A stretch of 62,589 bases of DNA from assembly GCA_010015585.1 (NCBI GenBank), contig ML975154.1; one strand, given 5' to 3'. How positions within the stretch are numbered: the first letter of the stretch is position 1; the number at the start of each line of letters is the position of its first letter. Origin of the DNA: Eremomyces bilateralis CBS 781.70 (taxonomy: Eukaryota). Positions 36,375 to 42,908 of this stretch are shown here, piece by piece. The translations under genes and the position numbers were made by a program. The notes below the pieces were generated by a model. That model saw only the letters and a program-made list of their open reading frames with translations, ran no database searches and was not told the DNA's origin.

Positions 36375-38918
36375 ATGCCTCCCAAACGGAAGAATCCAGG
36401 TATGGTCTAAACTCCAAGGTACCCGATGCATTAACTCTGATGTTGTATGGTAGCTCAGGCAGGCGGTCCGGCCAAACGGCTTGCCTCCGGCACTAACACC
36501 CCCCGCAGCCGTGACAGCGACGAGGAATACGCCGAAGATGCCTCCGCTCCCGTCAGCGACGAAGACGATGAGGGGATGGACCATCTTGTCAAGAAGTTCA
36601 CCGTGAACTCCTACAGTCGACCGGCGAAAGCCAAGGAAACTGCCATCCACGATGCCGCAGCGCGCCTCTTTGGCAACCGAGACCATTCGCACTTAGCGCT
36701 GAAGCCGGATCATGAAGACCGACCGTTATGGATAGACCCGGATCAAGGGAAGATTATTATGGAAACGTTTTCGCCATCGTTCAAGCATGCGGAGAATTTC
36801 CTCATCAACGTGGCAGAGCCGCAGTCGAGGGTTTCGCGGATCCACGAGTATACATTAACGAGCAATAGTCTCTTTGCAGCGGTCTCGGTTGGGTTGACGA
36901 CGGAGGATATCATCAAAGAGTTGGACCTTCTGTCCAAAACCCCGATTCCGGAATCAATACGGCAGTTTATCGTCGCCTCTACACGATCATTTGGCAAAGT
37001 GAGGTTGGTTTTGAAGAACACGAAATATTTTGTGGAAAGCTCCGATCCCTCGGTCCTACAAACACTTCTGCAAGACGAAATCATCGGTCCGTTGCGGGTT
37101 GACACTGCAGAGGGATTCACGAAGTCGGCAGCGCCGAAGATGGGCAATCTGGCGATTCCAGGCACTAAAATGGCAGCTGGCGCCAAGCAAGCCGTGCAGC
37201 AAGCACCAAAGGATGATGAGGAAGAAGACGATGCCCAGAAACAAGCGGAAGCGATGACTGCAACGCTGCTGGATGAAGACGACGAAGAAGAGGAGCGCGA
37301 GCAAGTCCACTCCTTCGAGATCGCCGCGGAGTCGGTCCAGGAGGTGTCGAGGCGGTGTCGCGCCATTGATTTGCCGTTGACGGAGGAGTACGATTTCCGG
37401 AACGACGACGCAAATGCGGATCTCGACATCGATTTAAAACCCGCGTCGCAGATTCGACCATATCAAGAGCAGGCCCTCAGCAAAATGTTTGGCAACGGTC
37501 GTGCGAGGAGTGGCATTATTGTTCTGCCGTGTGGAGCGGGCAAGACCTTGGTTGGCATCACGGCCGCATGCACGATCAAGAAAGGAGTGATCGTCCTCTG
37601 CACGAGTGCCATGTCCGTGGTCCAATGGCGGGCGGAATTTATCAAATGGTCGAACGTCAATCCGAAAGACATTGCCGTCTTCACCGCCGACCACAAAGAC
37701 AGCTTTTCCGGGACGACTGGCATCATCGTGTCCACCTACTCCATGGTCACACAATCGAAAGGCCGCTCCTACGAGTCCCAAAAAGTCATGGACTTCATCG
37801 AAAACCGCGAATGGGGCCTCATGATCCTTGATGAGGTGCACGTCGTCCCCGCCGAGATGTTCAAGCGCGTCACATATAAAGTCAAGGCGCACTCCAAGCT
37901 CGGGCTGACCGCGACGCTGCTCCGCGAAGACGACAAGATCGAACACCTCAACTTCCTCATCGGCCCGAAGCTCTACGAAGCCAACTGGCAGGAACTCTCG
38001 GAGCAGGGCCATATCGCGCGCGTGCAGTGCGCCGAGGTGTGGTGTCCGATGACCCCCGAATTCTACACCGAGTACCTCAACTCCAAGGGTCGCAAGGCCC
38101 TGCTCTTCACCATGAACCCGCGCAAGTTCCAGGCCTGCCAGTTCCTCATCGACTACCACGAGCGCCGCGGCGACAAGGTCATCGTCTTCTCCGACAACGT
38201 CTACGCCCTTGAAGCCTACGCCAAGAAGCTCAACAAGGCCTATATCTACGGCGGCACTCCGCAGGCCGAGCGCCTGCGCATCCTCGAGAACTTTCAGCAC
38301 AACGAGCTCGTCAACACCGTCTTCCTCTCGAAGATCGGGGACACCAGCTTGGATCTCCCCGAGGCGACCTGCCTCATTCAGATCTCCTCGCATTACGGGT
38401 CCCGCCGCCAGGAAGCGCAGCGGCTCGGCCGCATCCTCCGAGCGAAGCGCCGCAACGACGAGGGATTCAACGCGTTCTTCTACTCGCTGGTCTCGAAAGA
38501 CACCGCGGAGATGTACTACTCCTCTAAACGGCAAGCCTTCCTCGTCGACCAAGGCTACGCCTTCAAAGTGATCACCCACCTCCACGGCATCGACGCGATG
38601 CCGAACCTCGCGTTCAAAACCCCGCAAGAGCGCCGCGACCTGCTGATGTCGGTGATGTTGCAGATCGAGTCGGACGCGAGCCTCGGCGACGTGGAGCGGA
38701 TCGAGGGGGATCTGTTCAGCGAGGCGCGAGGCCGGTACGGGAAGAAGAAGGCAAAGCGGACGGCGGGGATGTTGAGCGATTTGAGCGGGGGGCAGGATAT
38801 GGCGTATGTGGAGTATGGGAAGAGTCGGAATAAAGAGTTGGCGGGGGGGAAGGGGAAGCATAAATCGTTTATGACGAAGTTGCGGAGGGATGCGGAGAGG
38901 CGAAAGGGGGGGATTTAG
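36375..38918 (+). CDS. SSL2: TFIIH DNA translocase XPB (Ssl2/Rad25)
   Basis: Exons 36375-36399 and 36454-38918. Motifs [68 protein letters not shown]. Confidence 0.98.
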
Positions 38919-39206
38919 ATGTAATGGTCACGAATTGCTGGGGTCGAGGGCTTTGGGTAGATCTCGCTGCAGATATAGCGACCTAGGATCTCACGGTCGA
39001 GAAATTGAAAGGTCTGAAACAAACTCATTGATCATGCTTTGCTGTCTGTAGTCTTCAGGGAAGAGACCAGTTCCCCACTTCCAAATGACTAGCGCTTTTC
39101 AATATATTCCTGAGATACCATTCATGATTTTGCGTTTTCCCCATGAGAATATGAAGGGTATACCCAAAGAAATACAATACCATCATTACTTACCCTCATC
39201 AACCCA

Positions 39207-40791
39207 CTAATACCCTCTCTCCCCAACCCTCACTGGCCCCCCCATCCATCCCAACCGCTCATAATACCGAAACACCAAATCATACCCATCCAAATAATGC
39301 ACGATCCGCTCCACCCGCTTATACCCCGGAATCTCCTCCATCCGCGCATTCCCACTCGCCCGTCCCCCCTCGGCCCCGCCCCCCCGCTCCTCGCTCCGCA
39401 CCCGCGCCTCGAACAGCGTCACGCTAAACCGCCCCGGCTTGAAGATCTTTACGACTTGCGCCACTAGGTCCGCGGTCTGTCGACCTCCCTGGCGCGCGGG
39501 CACGTTCGTCTCGAACGAGGCGTAGGAGAATCCGGGTTCGGGGGTGACGTGGACGGTGAAGTAGTGGGTTTCGGAGGGGGAGGACGGGGTGGTGGATTTT
39601 GGGTTGGGGGCAGTGACGGGGATGACGCCGTTGGCGGAGAAGCCGCACGGGGGGAAGAGGTAGGCGTCGACGCGGGCGTTGGGGAAGTCGGCAGTCGGGT
39701 AGATGTCGGCGAGGCCGCAGGTGTCGGAGACGACGGTGCCGAGGGCGTGGCCTTTGTCGTCGTCGAGGTCGGATTTCTCGGACGGGGAAGCGGAGGTGGT
39801 GGTGGAGACGTCGGAGCTGGCGTCGAAAGTGCAGTCGGCGGGTGTGTAGGGGCTTTTAACGTTGGCGGGGAAGGGGGAGACGCGGGAGGGGGAGACCTTG
39901 TGGCGGAGGCGCTGGGCGGTTAGCTCGGCTTCCGCGACGTAGAATTGCTTGGCGTTTTCTTCGTCAAGGTCGGTCATGAGGATTTCGAGGGTTTCGTCTT
40001 CTTGTTCGTCCGACGGTATATGCGGGAAGAGCACTTCGGGGGCCATGCTCTGCGCAAGGGGATCGCTCGCGTCCGCCGCTCCGGACGCCGTGGGAAGGGG
40101 AAGTCCCAAGGGCGGATTCGTCACATAGAGGAACCAGTGCTCGCCATTCATCTTGCCGATCATATACGCGCTGCCACCGTTGAACGTCTTGTCGAGGTAG
40201 CGCACCTCGTCTCCCCAGCTACGGTGCGGTCCATGTTGGCGATCCGGGAAGAGGAAGTTCTTCCGGCTGTAGAAAACTCGGTACGGCACCGCCGCCGCCA
40301 GCAGTCCTTTATGCGGATCGGCCGGCACCCCGGCAAATCCGACGTCTTGGAATGCGATTTCCAACATGCGAGGGATTCCGTAGAGAAGGGTCGTCGTTCC
40401 ACAGGTCTTCAGCACCAGCTTGTGCGGCCAAACGAACATGCTAGATTCGGACAGGAGGTATGCATCGACATGTTCGGACTTGACGATAGAGAGGACCTTG
40501 CAGCTGACCAGATCCAGCATCTCCTTCCATGTGTCCTCCGAAACGGCCTTCAACCCATTTGGCGCGACGCCGGCGGGCAGGTCGTGGGCGGTGGCGGAAA
40601 ACCAAACCTCAAGGAGCTTCTCCGGTCCTGAGACATGTCAGTTAAAACCCCATCCTGATCCCATCGAAACCCTCACCTTCAAACGCGTTCGAGGAATCTA
40701 AATCCTTGATCGCCTCATGGTTGATGCTGACGCTTGGAGTTCCGACGAATGATGCCGGAGTCCCAATGTGGTTGATATCCAGCGCGACCAT
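39207..40791 (-). CDS. SPE2: S-adenosylmethionine decarboxylase proenzyme
   Basis: Exons 40791-40677 and 40627-39207. Motifs FEGPEKLLEVWF, YLLSE-SSMF (pyruvoyl self-cleavage site), LKTCGTT, FPPCGFSANG, TVHVTPEPGFSYASFETN. Confidence 0.97.
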
Positions 40792-40811
40792 CTCCGTTGT
40801 ATCTCGACGGA

Positions 40812-41287
40812 TCAACCCCCTTCAACTCCTTCTCGTGCCTCGATGCTGGCGGCGTCAAACCGGAGAGAGCGGAGTGGTGAGCTCACGCTGCCACCCAGAC
40901 GAACAGGAGTCTGTCCGTCTGAGGAGAGGAGGCCCACGAACGATGGGGAGGAGAACGGCTGGTTCAACCCAGCGGAGTCGTCGTAGGAGGACGGAGAAGG
41001 CGGTTAAGGAGGGCGAGCAGAGAGGGGTAGAAAAAAGGCCTTTGGCGGCGTAATCGTGGCGATACCGGGGTGGCCTCGATCTGGTAGATTCCGATACCTG
41101 GAAGTATCGGGTCCGCAGATGAGGAGATCTGCTATTCAGCTGGTTTATAGGAAATCGTTGTAAGCCGTGTTATCTAGGTCTTTGAATCGTATGGTCAGCC
41201 ACTGTTTGCCGTCGACTCATTGATGTGAACAAATTATACGTACTTCCCGGGCTTGGACAGGATCCGTACGAGATCTTCCCGACGCAT
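40812..41287 (-). promoter_or_regulatory. Long spliced 5' leader of SPE2 with upstream ORFs
   Basis: AUG uORF from 41287 across a putative intron 41243-41174 (GTACGT..GCTGAC..CTAG) ends at TAA 41172-41170. An AUG-less 104-codon frame runs 41169-40855. An ACG-initiated frame 41057-41004 ends RPP-stop. Confidence 0.55.
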
Positions 41288-41915
41288 GAAGAAGTGGCGG
41301 TAGTGGCGTTACAACAGCCAAGTGTTGTTTAACTGGAGGAGACTATCTCGCAGCTCCGCCAGTTTGAAGGATGCCGTCTGCCGATGATGAAAAAGAAGTG
41401 TTCGGATCGTTGGTTCGGAGGAGAGTGTCAATTCTTGACGCGGTCCGTTCCGAGGGTAGCCCTGAAATTTAGAGGAACACGCAGTGGGTGGGTGAATCTC
41501 TCCAGAATCGGCTTTAATAGTCGATTCGAAGAGACGCTGGGGAATATGGTCTGCACATATGCAGTGATTAAATTGGCGTGGAGGCAGAAAGTATGAGGAG
41601 TATAAGAATTTTTAGTCGAGTGTGTTGAAATATTGCGGGAATTGTGTGAGAAGATGAAGCCACAGAAAGCGGGGCAAGGTGCGTTTTTTCGTTGCACATT
41701 GCGATCAGCAATTTGATCAGCACGCGACACTCCGCTTGATCTGCTGCTGGATGACGGTTGGCATGGGAATATTATATTAGATCCATCAATTGGACTTGGA
41801 GCCGATGGATGCTTTGTTCAGAATCCCAAGGCACTCTATTCGTATATTCATGACAATAGCTGGTGGGTATCAAGATCATGCATGCTCCGAACATGACTGT
41901 ATACTGTACATATCA

Positions 41916-42908
41916 TCAAGTCCCCCCATTCCTATCCCGCTCCTCTATATCCTTCAATATACTGTTCACCATTCCCTCAAACAGAGGATATATTGAACAA
42001 CTCGTGTACTTTTCAACCAGCAACCCATCATCCCTCGTCCCTGCATCCTCCCCATTCCCCTCCGCTTCTTGTGCTTCCGTGCCACCCACAACCGTTCCCT
42101 TCGGATACACCGGCCTCTTCCCCTCCTCAATCAAAGCCACAAATGCCGGATCGATAGGAACGCTCCCCAAGAATGGCACCACCGCCTCCCTCGCCATGAT
42201 TTCGCCCCCCCCTTTGCTAAACACATTCGTACACTCACTGCAATGCGGACACACGAACCCCGCCATGTTTTCTACCACTCCCAACACCCGCAGCCCCGTC
42301 TTCCGGCAAAAATCCAGCTCCTTCTTGACGTCCGAGATCGCGACCGCCTGCGGGGTAGTGACCACCACCGCTCCGGATAGCTGAGCGGGGGTCGCAGCAG
42401 TTTCCTTCAGCAGCGTTTCAAGAAGCGAGATGTGCTCATCGGACGTTCCGGGGGGGGTGTCGATCAGAAGGTACTCGGTGTCGGACGGCCAAACGGTCGA
42501 GGTGAGGAATTGGCGGACCATGGCCGTCTTTTTCGGACCGCGCCAGATGACGGCGGTGGAGCGACTGGAGAGGACGAGGCCGAGGGAGATGGCGGAGAGA
42601 CGGGCATAGCTGATGTTTGAAGATGGGGTGGTGGAGGGGTTATCGGAAGAGGTAGGTACAGTAGGTTGCGCCGGTTTTGCTTCGTGGACGGTAACTGGTA
42701 ATAGCCCGCCGGCCGACTGTGTGATCTTTGCGGACTCGACACCTAGAAAGCGTGGGATGGAGGGACCGGTGAGATCGACGTCGAGGATCCCAACCGAATG
42801 GCCTTGTAAAGACAGTGTCAGAGCAAGCTGCGTCGTGACACTGGATTTCCCCACGCCGCCTTTGCCGGAGAGGACGAGGATGATATGGGGGATTTGTTGG
42901 AGAGACAT
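41916..42908 (-). CDS. CFD1: Cytosolic Fe-S cluster assembly P-loop NTPase Cfd1
   Basis: Motifs [45 protein letters not shown]. It lacks the N-terminal Cys cluster of Nbp35. Confidence 0.93.

Follow-up and report, generated by a model that had tools for sequence, protein, structure and literature searches.

An AUG-less reading frame ending in Pro-Pro-stop in the AdoMetDC (SPE2) leaders of filamentous fungi: a candidate polyamine-responsive element

The SPE2 leader and its orthologues

We describe here the leader of SPE2, the gene for S-adenosylmethionine decarboxylase (AdoMetDC), in a stretch of 62,589 nucleotides (nt) from Eremomyces bilateralis CBS 781.70 (assembly GCA_010015585.1, contig ML975154.1), hereafter the window, and within it a short conserved reading frame lacking an AUG, ORF2, which ends in Pro-Pro-stop and is probably translated. 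AdoMetDC commits S-adenosylmethionine to spermidine synthesis, and is governed by upstream open reading frames (uORFs) both in animals and in plants; for filamentous fungi, a conserved AUG uORF and a hairpin were all that had been reported so far, without a polyamine-sensing mechanism. Both are found in the window, as uORF1 and the SDC hairpin. Within the searchable literature these two elements are already known (Ivanov 2010 and Li & Breaker 2017, respectively), and what appears to be new is ORF2, which resembles the uCC of ornithine decarboxylase (ODC) leaders.

The gene and the main parts of its leader are as follows.

40677..40791, minus strand: SPE2 exon 1, with AUG at 40791 and G at -3
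40676..40628, minus strand: intron of the SPE2 coding sequence (CDS), 49 nt, absent from an RNA-derived contig (run X1)
40627 to the stop at 39207, minus strand: SPE2 exon 2
41244..41287, minus strand: 5' part of uORF1, from the AUG at 41287 through base 2 of codon 15
41180..41243, minus strand: leader intron in uORF1 codon 15, 64 nt, GTACGT ... GCTGAC ... first AG, seen as a skip in the X1 contig
41170..41179, minus strand: 3' part of uORF1, with base 3 of codon 15, Pro, Arg and UAA (41172-41170), then C
41004..41054, minus strand: ORF2, AUU (41054, context GCCACG-AUU-A), 16 codons, I-TPPKAFFLPLSARPP, UAA at 41006-41004, then C
40894..40923, minus strand: SDC-motif hairpin, 13 base pairs (bp) here, 11 of which correspond to the stem of the family; 102 nt lie between its end and the main AUG

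An earlier note on this DNA had read the region as an SPE2 leader containing four frames: (i) an AUG uORF split by an intron, (ii) 104 open codons directly after its stop, (iii) a frame opened by an ACG and ending in ...SARPP-stop, and (iv) a further 63 open codons. All four translate as written there, and the AdoMetDC gene does lie downstream, both in the window and in orthologous loci. It is practically certain that the stretch belongs to the known SPE2/AdoMetDC leader family of Pezizomycotina.

Orthologous leaders were drawn from metagenome contigs by means of a degenerate pattern covering uORF1 codons 1-15. The scan gave at least 111 matching stretches, flanks were retrieved for 80, and 66 records, spliced in silico to the main AUG, yielded 56 unique leaders (55 loci and the window), to which the counts below refer unless otherwise stated; they form 34 clusters at 75% identity. 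Among the matches listed, each sufficiently long locus features an AdoMetDC homologue 450-740 nt past the uORF1 AUG, except L026, which matches the uORF pattern, has neither a downstream AdoMetDC nor an intron signal, and is probably a chance match. The best exon-2 identity to the window among the loci listed is about 75% over the first 200 residues, and no close relative was found there. The main AUG of SPE2 is preceded by a purine at -3 in all 56 leaders.

Conservation and coding signature of ORF2

An AUG-less ORF2 was identified in 56 out of 56 unique leaders; frame (iii) of the earlier note, with its ...SARPP-stop ending, is real and far beyond what chance would produce. The peptide encoded in the window is I-T-P-P-K-A-F-F-L-P-L-S-A-R-P-P-stop, and the consensus over the leaders is approximately I-P-x-x-K-x-F-F-I-P-L-S-A-R-P-P-stop. 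When the leaders are anchored at the stop, the mean column entropy is 0.77, 0.74 and 1.30 at codon positions 1, 2 and 3, respectively. The stop itself is TAA in 55 leaders and TAG in one, and the next base (+4) is C in 53. Searched for without regard to frame, the start motif CA[AC]N-AT[TA] occurs once per leader, 45 nt (5 leaders), 48 nt (48) or 51 nt (3) ahead of the stop; it is never out of frame with the stop, and all changes in ORF2 length are multiples of three.

The same conclusion is reached by comparing codons, along the lines proposed in the earlier note, which had suggested aligning the leaders and testing each frame for synonymous bias. In the last 13 codons of ORF2, 43.9% of the pairwise codon differences are synonymous in frame, as opposed to 7.9% and 8.4% in the shifted frames (0.44 vs 0.08); uORF1, used as a positive control, gave 68.4% in frame and 2.5-7.1% shifted. 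For the flanks, the synonymous share is 5-7% in the 13 codons upstream of the AUU and 7-11% in the 13 codons after the ORF2 stop.

The 5' edge of ORF2 is marked by an Ile codon, which is ATT in 54 leaders, ATA in two and ATC in none; by comparison, an Ile codon internal to ORF2 is ATC in 25 leaders and ATT in 29. The context of the AUU is just as constant, with A at -3 in all leaders and C at -4 in 53. Four leaders also have an ATA or ATC further upstream, with the ATT standing 16 codons before the stop. As judged from this conservation, the start of ORF2 is likely the near-invariant AUU at 41054. The ACG at 41057, from which the earlier note had opened the frame, is the codon just before the AUU and is not conserved across the 56 leaders, only the adjacent AUU being so (ATT 54/56, ATA 2/56). 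The wider proposal made there, of a near-cognate, Pro-Pro-stop reading frame like those of other polyamine-pathway leaders, agrees with the conserved AUU and the Pro-Pro-stop ending.

We have found no earlier description of ORF2 in AdoMetDC leaders in the searchable literature, subscription journals being mostly outside its reach, so that a prior description is possible. The literature on fungal AdoMetDC leaders that turned up consists only of a 2010 uORF review and a 2017 motif paper, the available parts of which mention no non-AUG reading frame; similarly, no mention of the SPE2/AdoMetDC gene came up in a passage search of a 2017 mBio paper on non-AUG initiation in Neurospora.

uORF1, its intron and the SDC hairpin

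By its sequence, uORF1 is a member of the published Pezizomycotina AdoMetDC uORF family, and the earlier note, which allowed for an existing description of the element, was right to do so as far as the AUG uORF is concerned. A conserved uORF was reported in Pezizomycotina AdoMetDC leaders by Ivanov, Atkins & Michael 2010 (NAR 38:353, PMC2811004); for this paper, as for Li & Breaker 2017 cited below, our statements refer to the available parts. Their Suppl. Fig. 1A displays the uORF for 25 species, in 25 out of 25 cases with 17 codons ending in K-P-R-stop. The window element shares with it the AUG start, the peptide M-x-x-x-D-L-[LV]-R-x-L-S-K-P-x-K-P-R-stop and the penultimate proline; compared with the form printed for the Pleosporales Pyrenophora, Phaeosphaeria and Cochliobolus, 15 of the 17 residues are identical, the window having Ile where that form has Phe (residue 9) and Gly where it has Ala (residue 14). 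The distance from uORF1 to the main AUG is 378 nt in the window, as compared with 405 and 441 b printed for two Pezizomycotina entries. Ivanov 2010 gives mRNA sequences, and the codon-15 intron is unmentioned in the available part, where a single uORF is listed for Pezizomycotina AdoMetDC and the evidence given is conservation.

The intron could be located by means of RNA. Run X1, the sole public run covering the stretch, the kind of which was guessed, includes a contig of 3357 letters, which was compared with positions 39000-42300 of the window. Two segments are missing from the contig, one of 64 nt (41180..41243) and one of 49 nt (40628..40676), both GT..AG on the minus strand, and it is otherwise letter-identical to the window across this region; the second skip is printed as 40627..40675 in the contig comparison, cut one position further right. 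The contig derives from RNA, because the CDS intron 40628..40676 is skipped in it, and since the X1 depth bins are the product of contig depth and covered fraction, neither intron is covered by any X1 contig.

The intron in uORF1 is thus real, with its 3' end at 41180. Its 5' splice site, GTACGT, lies at 41243, and the first AG past the GCTGAC branch motif is 41181-41180; removal joins AA to A-CCT-AGA-TAA, producing K-P-R-stop and a total of 17 codons, while the unspliced DNA features a Tyr-Val-stop ending rather than Pro-Arg-stop. uORF1 has the canonical 17-codon form because the RNA contig skips exactly 41180..41243, and the K-P-R-stop ending is completed only when the codon-15 intron is spliced out. 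The earlier note had correctly predicted an AUG uORF (AUG at 41287) split by an intron, and had asked for RNA to confirm it, which the X1 contig provides. Of the intron it placed at 41243-41174, the 5' end stands and the 3' end was off by 6 nt; its 15-codon product ending in ...PGK-stop is accordingly replaced by the 17-codon one, with the same stop codon (41172-41170). uORF1 will be misread wherever gene models or uORF catalogues are derived from genomic DNA, the last two of its codons lying past the intron. 3' splice sites which would fuse uORF1 to ORF2 were searched for manually and none fits, the RNA contig fixing the site at 41180.

An intron at the same point is predicted in 101 of the 111 metagenome loci listed. 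Taking these loci together with the window (n=112), 102 feature a GT right after base 2 of codon 15 and, further downstream, an AG leading into [AG]-CCN-(CGN/AGR)-stop; of the others, 4 have a contiguous uORF1, 5 are too short, with at most 69 nt downstream, and one is the unrelated L026. The predicted introns of the loci listed are 48-265 nt long, and 46 of 53 unique introns end at the first AG that follows a YTRAY motif. Judged by this recurrence, the codon-15 intron is an old feature common to these genes. In N. crassa, alternative splicing near the uORFs has been described, one product keeping only the 3' half of 'uORF 2' (Li & Breaker 2017, PMC5640933); this splice form is compatible with the same codon-15 intron. 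No statement on a general conservation of the intron was found in the available part of that paper, which deals in this respect with N. crassa only.

The four loci having uORF1 without its intron are L022, L024, L042 and L068. Three of them, those with enough sequence, also lack the CDS intron, and these contigs may be transcript-derived. The intronless loci extend for 221-393 nt upstream of uORF1, with 0, 0 and 1 ATG, which suggests long leaders where uORF1 is usually the first AUG; in the window, 271 nt separate uORF1 from the closest ATG upstream. With GTGAGT, GTAAGT or GTAGGT, which are common as 5' splice sites here, unspliced RNA has a stop right after Lys15; with the GTACGT of the window, unspliced RNA also encodes a 17-codon uORF, with the differing end Tyr-Val-stop.

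The context of the uORF1 AUG is weak, with U at -3 in the window and a pyrimidine at this position in all 56 leaders. UAA followed by C ends both upstream reading frames in the window (41170-41173 and 41003-41006), C following the stop of uORF1 in 54 leaders and that of ORF2 in 53. This shared termination context may be relevant to stalling.

A second published element, overlooked in the earlier note, is the hairpin at 40923..40894, which matches the SDC hairpin, a published translational repressor. Li & Breaker 2017 (BMC Genomics 18:785, PMC5640933) described it as a hairpin with an 11-bp stem, located just upstream of the SAM decarboxylase reading frame, with 34 representatives in 26 species of fungi, Aspergillus, Ajellomyces and Chaetomium among them, and reported that it represses a reporter in N. 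crassa, compensatory mutations restoring repression. The window element was matched to it by the published verbal description only, i.e. a hairpin with a stem of about 11 bp ahead of a SAM decarboxylase reading frame. In our own alignment of the 56 leaders, 93.1% of the cells of the stem are paired, as opposed to 30-45% with the partner slid; both sides have changed in 5 of the 11 pairs, and none of 500 shuffles reaches either the observed paired share or the covariation score. Compared with the family in this alignment, the window hairpin has a 13-bp stem, owing to two extra stem pairs, and the loop ACUC (40907-40912) instead of the usual ACCGCAUU. No recognisable SDC hairpin could be seen by eye in the aligned columns of L005, L023, L043 and L064. 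An Rfam scan of positions 40500-42000, with E up to 10, returned no relevant family; the SDC motif is apparently absent from the copy searched.

Three smaller conserved elements were also noticed in the leader.

40880..40892, minus strand: conserved box past the SDC hairpin, found by alignment, with family consensus GGCAGAUAGUGCU and GGCAGCGUGAGCU in the window
41115..41132, minus strand: conserved box GCAGAU-N6-AUCUGC, a possible 6-bp hairpin, from leader alignments and its palindrome
41091..41110, minus strand: hairpin A, small and conserved, predicted to fold as CCGAUACU / GGUAUCGG with 8 bp and a 4-nt loop

Hairpin A recurs as CCGAUACUU..GGGUAUCGG in many leaders.

Likeness to polyamine-responsive leaders and proposed working

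The closest parallel to ORF2 is the uCC (upstream conserved coding region; Ivanov, Loughran & Atkins 2008) of ODC and antizyme-inhibitor (AZIN1) leaders, which starts at a conserved AUU set in a Kozak context and has two neighbouring prolines close to its C-terminus; spermidine enhances the repression it exerts, this repression depends on the C-terminal peptide, and in Pezizomycotina ODC leaders the uCC is about 100 codons long, with conservation concentrated C-terminally (Ivanov et al. 2010, PMC2811004, in its available part). ORF2 shares with it a conserved coding region devoid of in-frame AUGs, a conserved near-cognate start, mostly AUU, in strong context, a peptide conserved mainly towards a C-terminus where two prolines are adjacent, and the location in a polyamine-pathway leader also holding a conventional uORF. 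In later uCC work, the same group reportedly found that ribosomes pause at the proline motif, that eIF5A relieves the pause and that queued ribosomes promote initiation at the AUU. The differences are that the host gene encodes AdoMetDC and not an ODC homologue, and that ORF2 is shorter, 15-17 codons as against 22 to about 100, and ends directly in Pro-Pro-stop. Because the host is not an ODC homologue and ORF2 is shorter, we class ORF2 as uCC-like in its working, and not as a member of the family: the likeness is one of features, and no sequence relationship is claimed.

Polyamine-responsive uORF control of the same enzyme is provided by the tiny/small uORF pair of plant SAMDC and by mammalian MAGDIS. 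In plants the AUG uORFs overlap, in mammals the element is a cap-proximal hexapeptide, and both systems are unlike the fungal leader in sequence and architecture. The plant and mammalian AdoMetDC uORFs arose independently, and for the small plant uORF, which has a penultimate proline, termination-linked stalling has been proposed (Ivanov et al. 2010, PMC2811004, in its available part).

In its modules, the leader runs from uORF1 (K-P-R-stop) through an AUG-free spacer of about 380 nt, containing two small boxes or hairpins, and ORF2, to the SDC hairpin about 100 nt before the AUG. We consider it likely that this is a standard Pezizomycotina SPE2 leader of four conserved modules, in which ORF2 would work along the following lines. 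The weak-context AUG of uORF1 would be partly bypassed, and most scanning ribosomes would leak past it or reinitiate; the conserved peptide of uORF1, with its penultimate proline, might slow termination. The AUG-free spacer would let ribosomes keep scanning, until a polyamine-dependent fraction of them starts translating at the AUU, in its strong context, and comes to a pause at Pro-Pro-stop, a termination context that would need eIF5A, which polyamines would antagonise. The paused ribosome, together with any queue behind it, would block scanning to the SPE2 AUG, and high spermidine would then result in less AdoMetDC synthesis. uORF1 and the hairpin would add constitutive or additional repression, the hairpin lowering the basal flow.

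The scarcity of AUGs agrees with a need for ribosomes to scan this leader once past uORF1: from uORF1 to the main AUG, ATG occurs only 8 times in total in the 56 leaders, compared with 181.6 +/- 10.9 in dinucleotide shuffles, and 51 leaders contain none.

That ORF2 itself senses polyamines is, in our opinion, an evenly balanced proposition, based on the analogy with the uCC. If true, ORF2 would bring control of the AZIN1/ODC type, combining a near-cognate start and an eIF5A-sensitive pause, to the other rate-limiting enzyme of the pathway, and ORF2 is conserved over many fungal lineages. A more inclusive reading can be put forward only tentatively, by analogy: AdoMetDC mRNAs across Pezizomycotina would carry an undescribed, AUU-started sensor of the uCC type, with 15-17 codons and an R-P-P-stop ending, at which a pause governed by spermidine and eIF5A gates the SPE2 AUG, in series with uORF1 and the SDC hairpin; the intron of uORF1 would let splicing decide whether the peptide takes its active ...KPR-stop form or is truncated or altered, coupling splicing to translation.

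Several points weigh against this picture. Both initiation at the AUU and the polyamine response are things that we infer, from sequence and from analogy. Pro-Pro-stop, found in 56 of the 56 leaders, belonged to the pattern by which ORF2 was searched, and no leader (0/56) failed it. The leaders were gathered by a uORF1 pattern, so that the sample is one of uORF1-bearing leaders, and being related (34 clusters at 75% identity) they yield counts that overstate independence. From the AUU down to the last Pro codon the distance is 45 nt, no obvious multiple of a ribosome footprint for simple queuing. Spermine or spermidine binding to the hairpin RNA was not seen in the experiments described in the available part of Li & Breaker 2017 (PMC5640933). 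The X1 contig runs unbroken into the upstream gene, and the transcription start is therefore not readable from it. Finally, stops upstream of the AUU are fewer in the ORF2 frame than in the others, 26 vs 65 and 64 in the 56 leaders, and the same deficit is found in the cluster representatives, 21 vs 41 and 39 (in the window, the segment concerned is 41054-41138): some initiation may take place further upstream of the AUU.

This deficit (26 vs 65/64, representatives 21 vs 41/39) is one argument for the most probable of the alternatives, namely that ORF2 is the conserved C-terminus of a longer upstream coding region, translated from varied near-cognate starts or entered from uORF1, the AUU being internal to it. 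Such an arrangement would recall the ODC uCC of Pezizomycotina, with its roughly 100 codons conserved mainly at the C-terminus, and in 17 of the 34 cluster representatives the ORF2 frame is indeed uninterrupted as far back as the uORF1 stop, ORF2 being in frame with uORF1 in 31 of the 56 leaders and fully open in 25. However, no synonymous excess is found in the 13 codons upstream of the AUU (0.07 vs 0.05-0.06), conservation starts sharply at -6 to -3, and the Ile codon at the start is never ATC. Furthermore, only 5 codons are open upstream of the AUU in L017, and in the window the ORF2 frame, which differs from that of uORF1, is closed 27 codons upstream. We therefore regard the longer coding region as unlikely. 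A common frame for uORF1 and ORF2 was considered as a rule and rejected: the distribution over the three frames is 31/13/12 in the raw set and 15/10/9 among the 34 cluster representatives, the latter not different from even.

Slightly less probable still is the view that the ORF2 region is conserved as an RNA element, either a protein-binding site or a structure, is never translated, and is in frame by coincidence. The leader does carry conserved non-coding elements, i.e. the SDC hairpin and two boxes, conservation runs a few bases beyond the ORF2 stop (C at +4 in 53 of the 56 leaders), and translation of ORF2 is something we infer from its sequence. An RNA element would not, however, be expected to vary with a three-base period (0.77, 0.74, 1.30), to accumulate synonymous differences in one frame (0.44 vs 0.08 out of frame), to change its length exclusively by multiples of three, and to keep a stop codon (TAA 55/56, TAG 1/56) at its end; in addition, the predicted fold of the leader shows no stable structure over the ORF2 segment. 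On these grounds we favour translation of ORF2 from the AUU.

In the full model of the earlier note, two further frames would act as read-through extensions and add layers to the switch.

40855..41169, minus strand: frame (ii), 104 codons left open past the stop of uORF1, put down to chance
40812..41003, minus strand: frame (iv), 63 codons left open past the stop of ORF2, likewise put down to chance

UAA followed by C is a leaky termination context, both uORF1 and ORF2 stop in this way, and both frames are indeed open in the window. Their openness is, on the other hand, within the reach of chance, as assessed by 5000 dinucleotide shuffles of the 378-nt leader of the window: at least 104 open codons after the uORF1 stop were found in 6.1% of the shuffles in that frame and in 25.7% in some frame. 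The window leader contains 9 stop triplets, compared with 9.6 expected, and at about 0.024 stops per triplet (9 in 376) the chance of 63 open codons is about 0.2. Nor are the extensions conserved in length or in peptide: across leaders, the in-frame opening ranges from 6 to 130 codons (median 56.5) after uORF1 and from 6 to 79 (median 39) after the ORF2 stop, where there is no synonymous excess (0.07-0.11). Stops over the whole leaders are evenly distributed by frame (160, 178 and 176) and amount to 514, 20% fewer than the 648 +/- 18 of the shuffles; both frames cross the SDC hairpin, frame (iv) passing straight through this conserved structure. We see in frames (ii) and (iv) by-products of a leader poor in stops and rich in pyrimidines, and their working as read-through extensions is highly improbable.

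As to the surroundings of SPE2, the nearest upstream gene, on the same strand, occupies 41916..42908; from its P-loop start, it looks like a Cfd1/Nbp35-type ATPase. Since it ends at 41916, a spacer of 1.1 kb holds its 3' end together with the promoter and leader of SPE2. The X1 contig is unbroken from SPE2 through this entire spacer into the upstream gene: either the 3' untranslated region of the latter and the SPE2 leader overlap or abut, or transcription reads through. On the opposite strand, an open reading frame of 823 aa at 36447-38918 (plus strand) converges on the 3' end of SPE2; from its helicase motifs, it presumably encodes the TFIIH helicase XPB/Ssl2.

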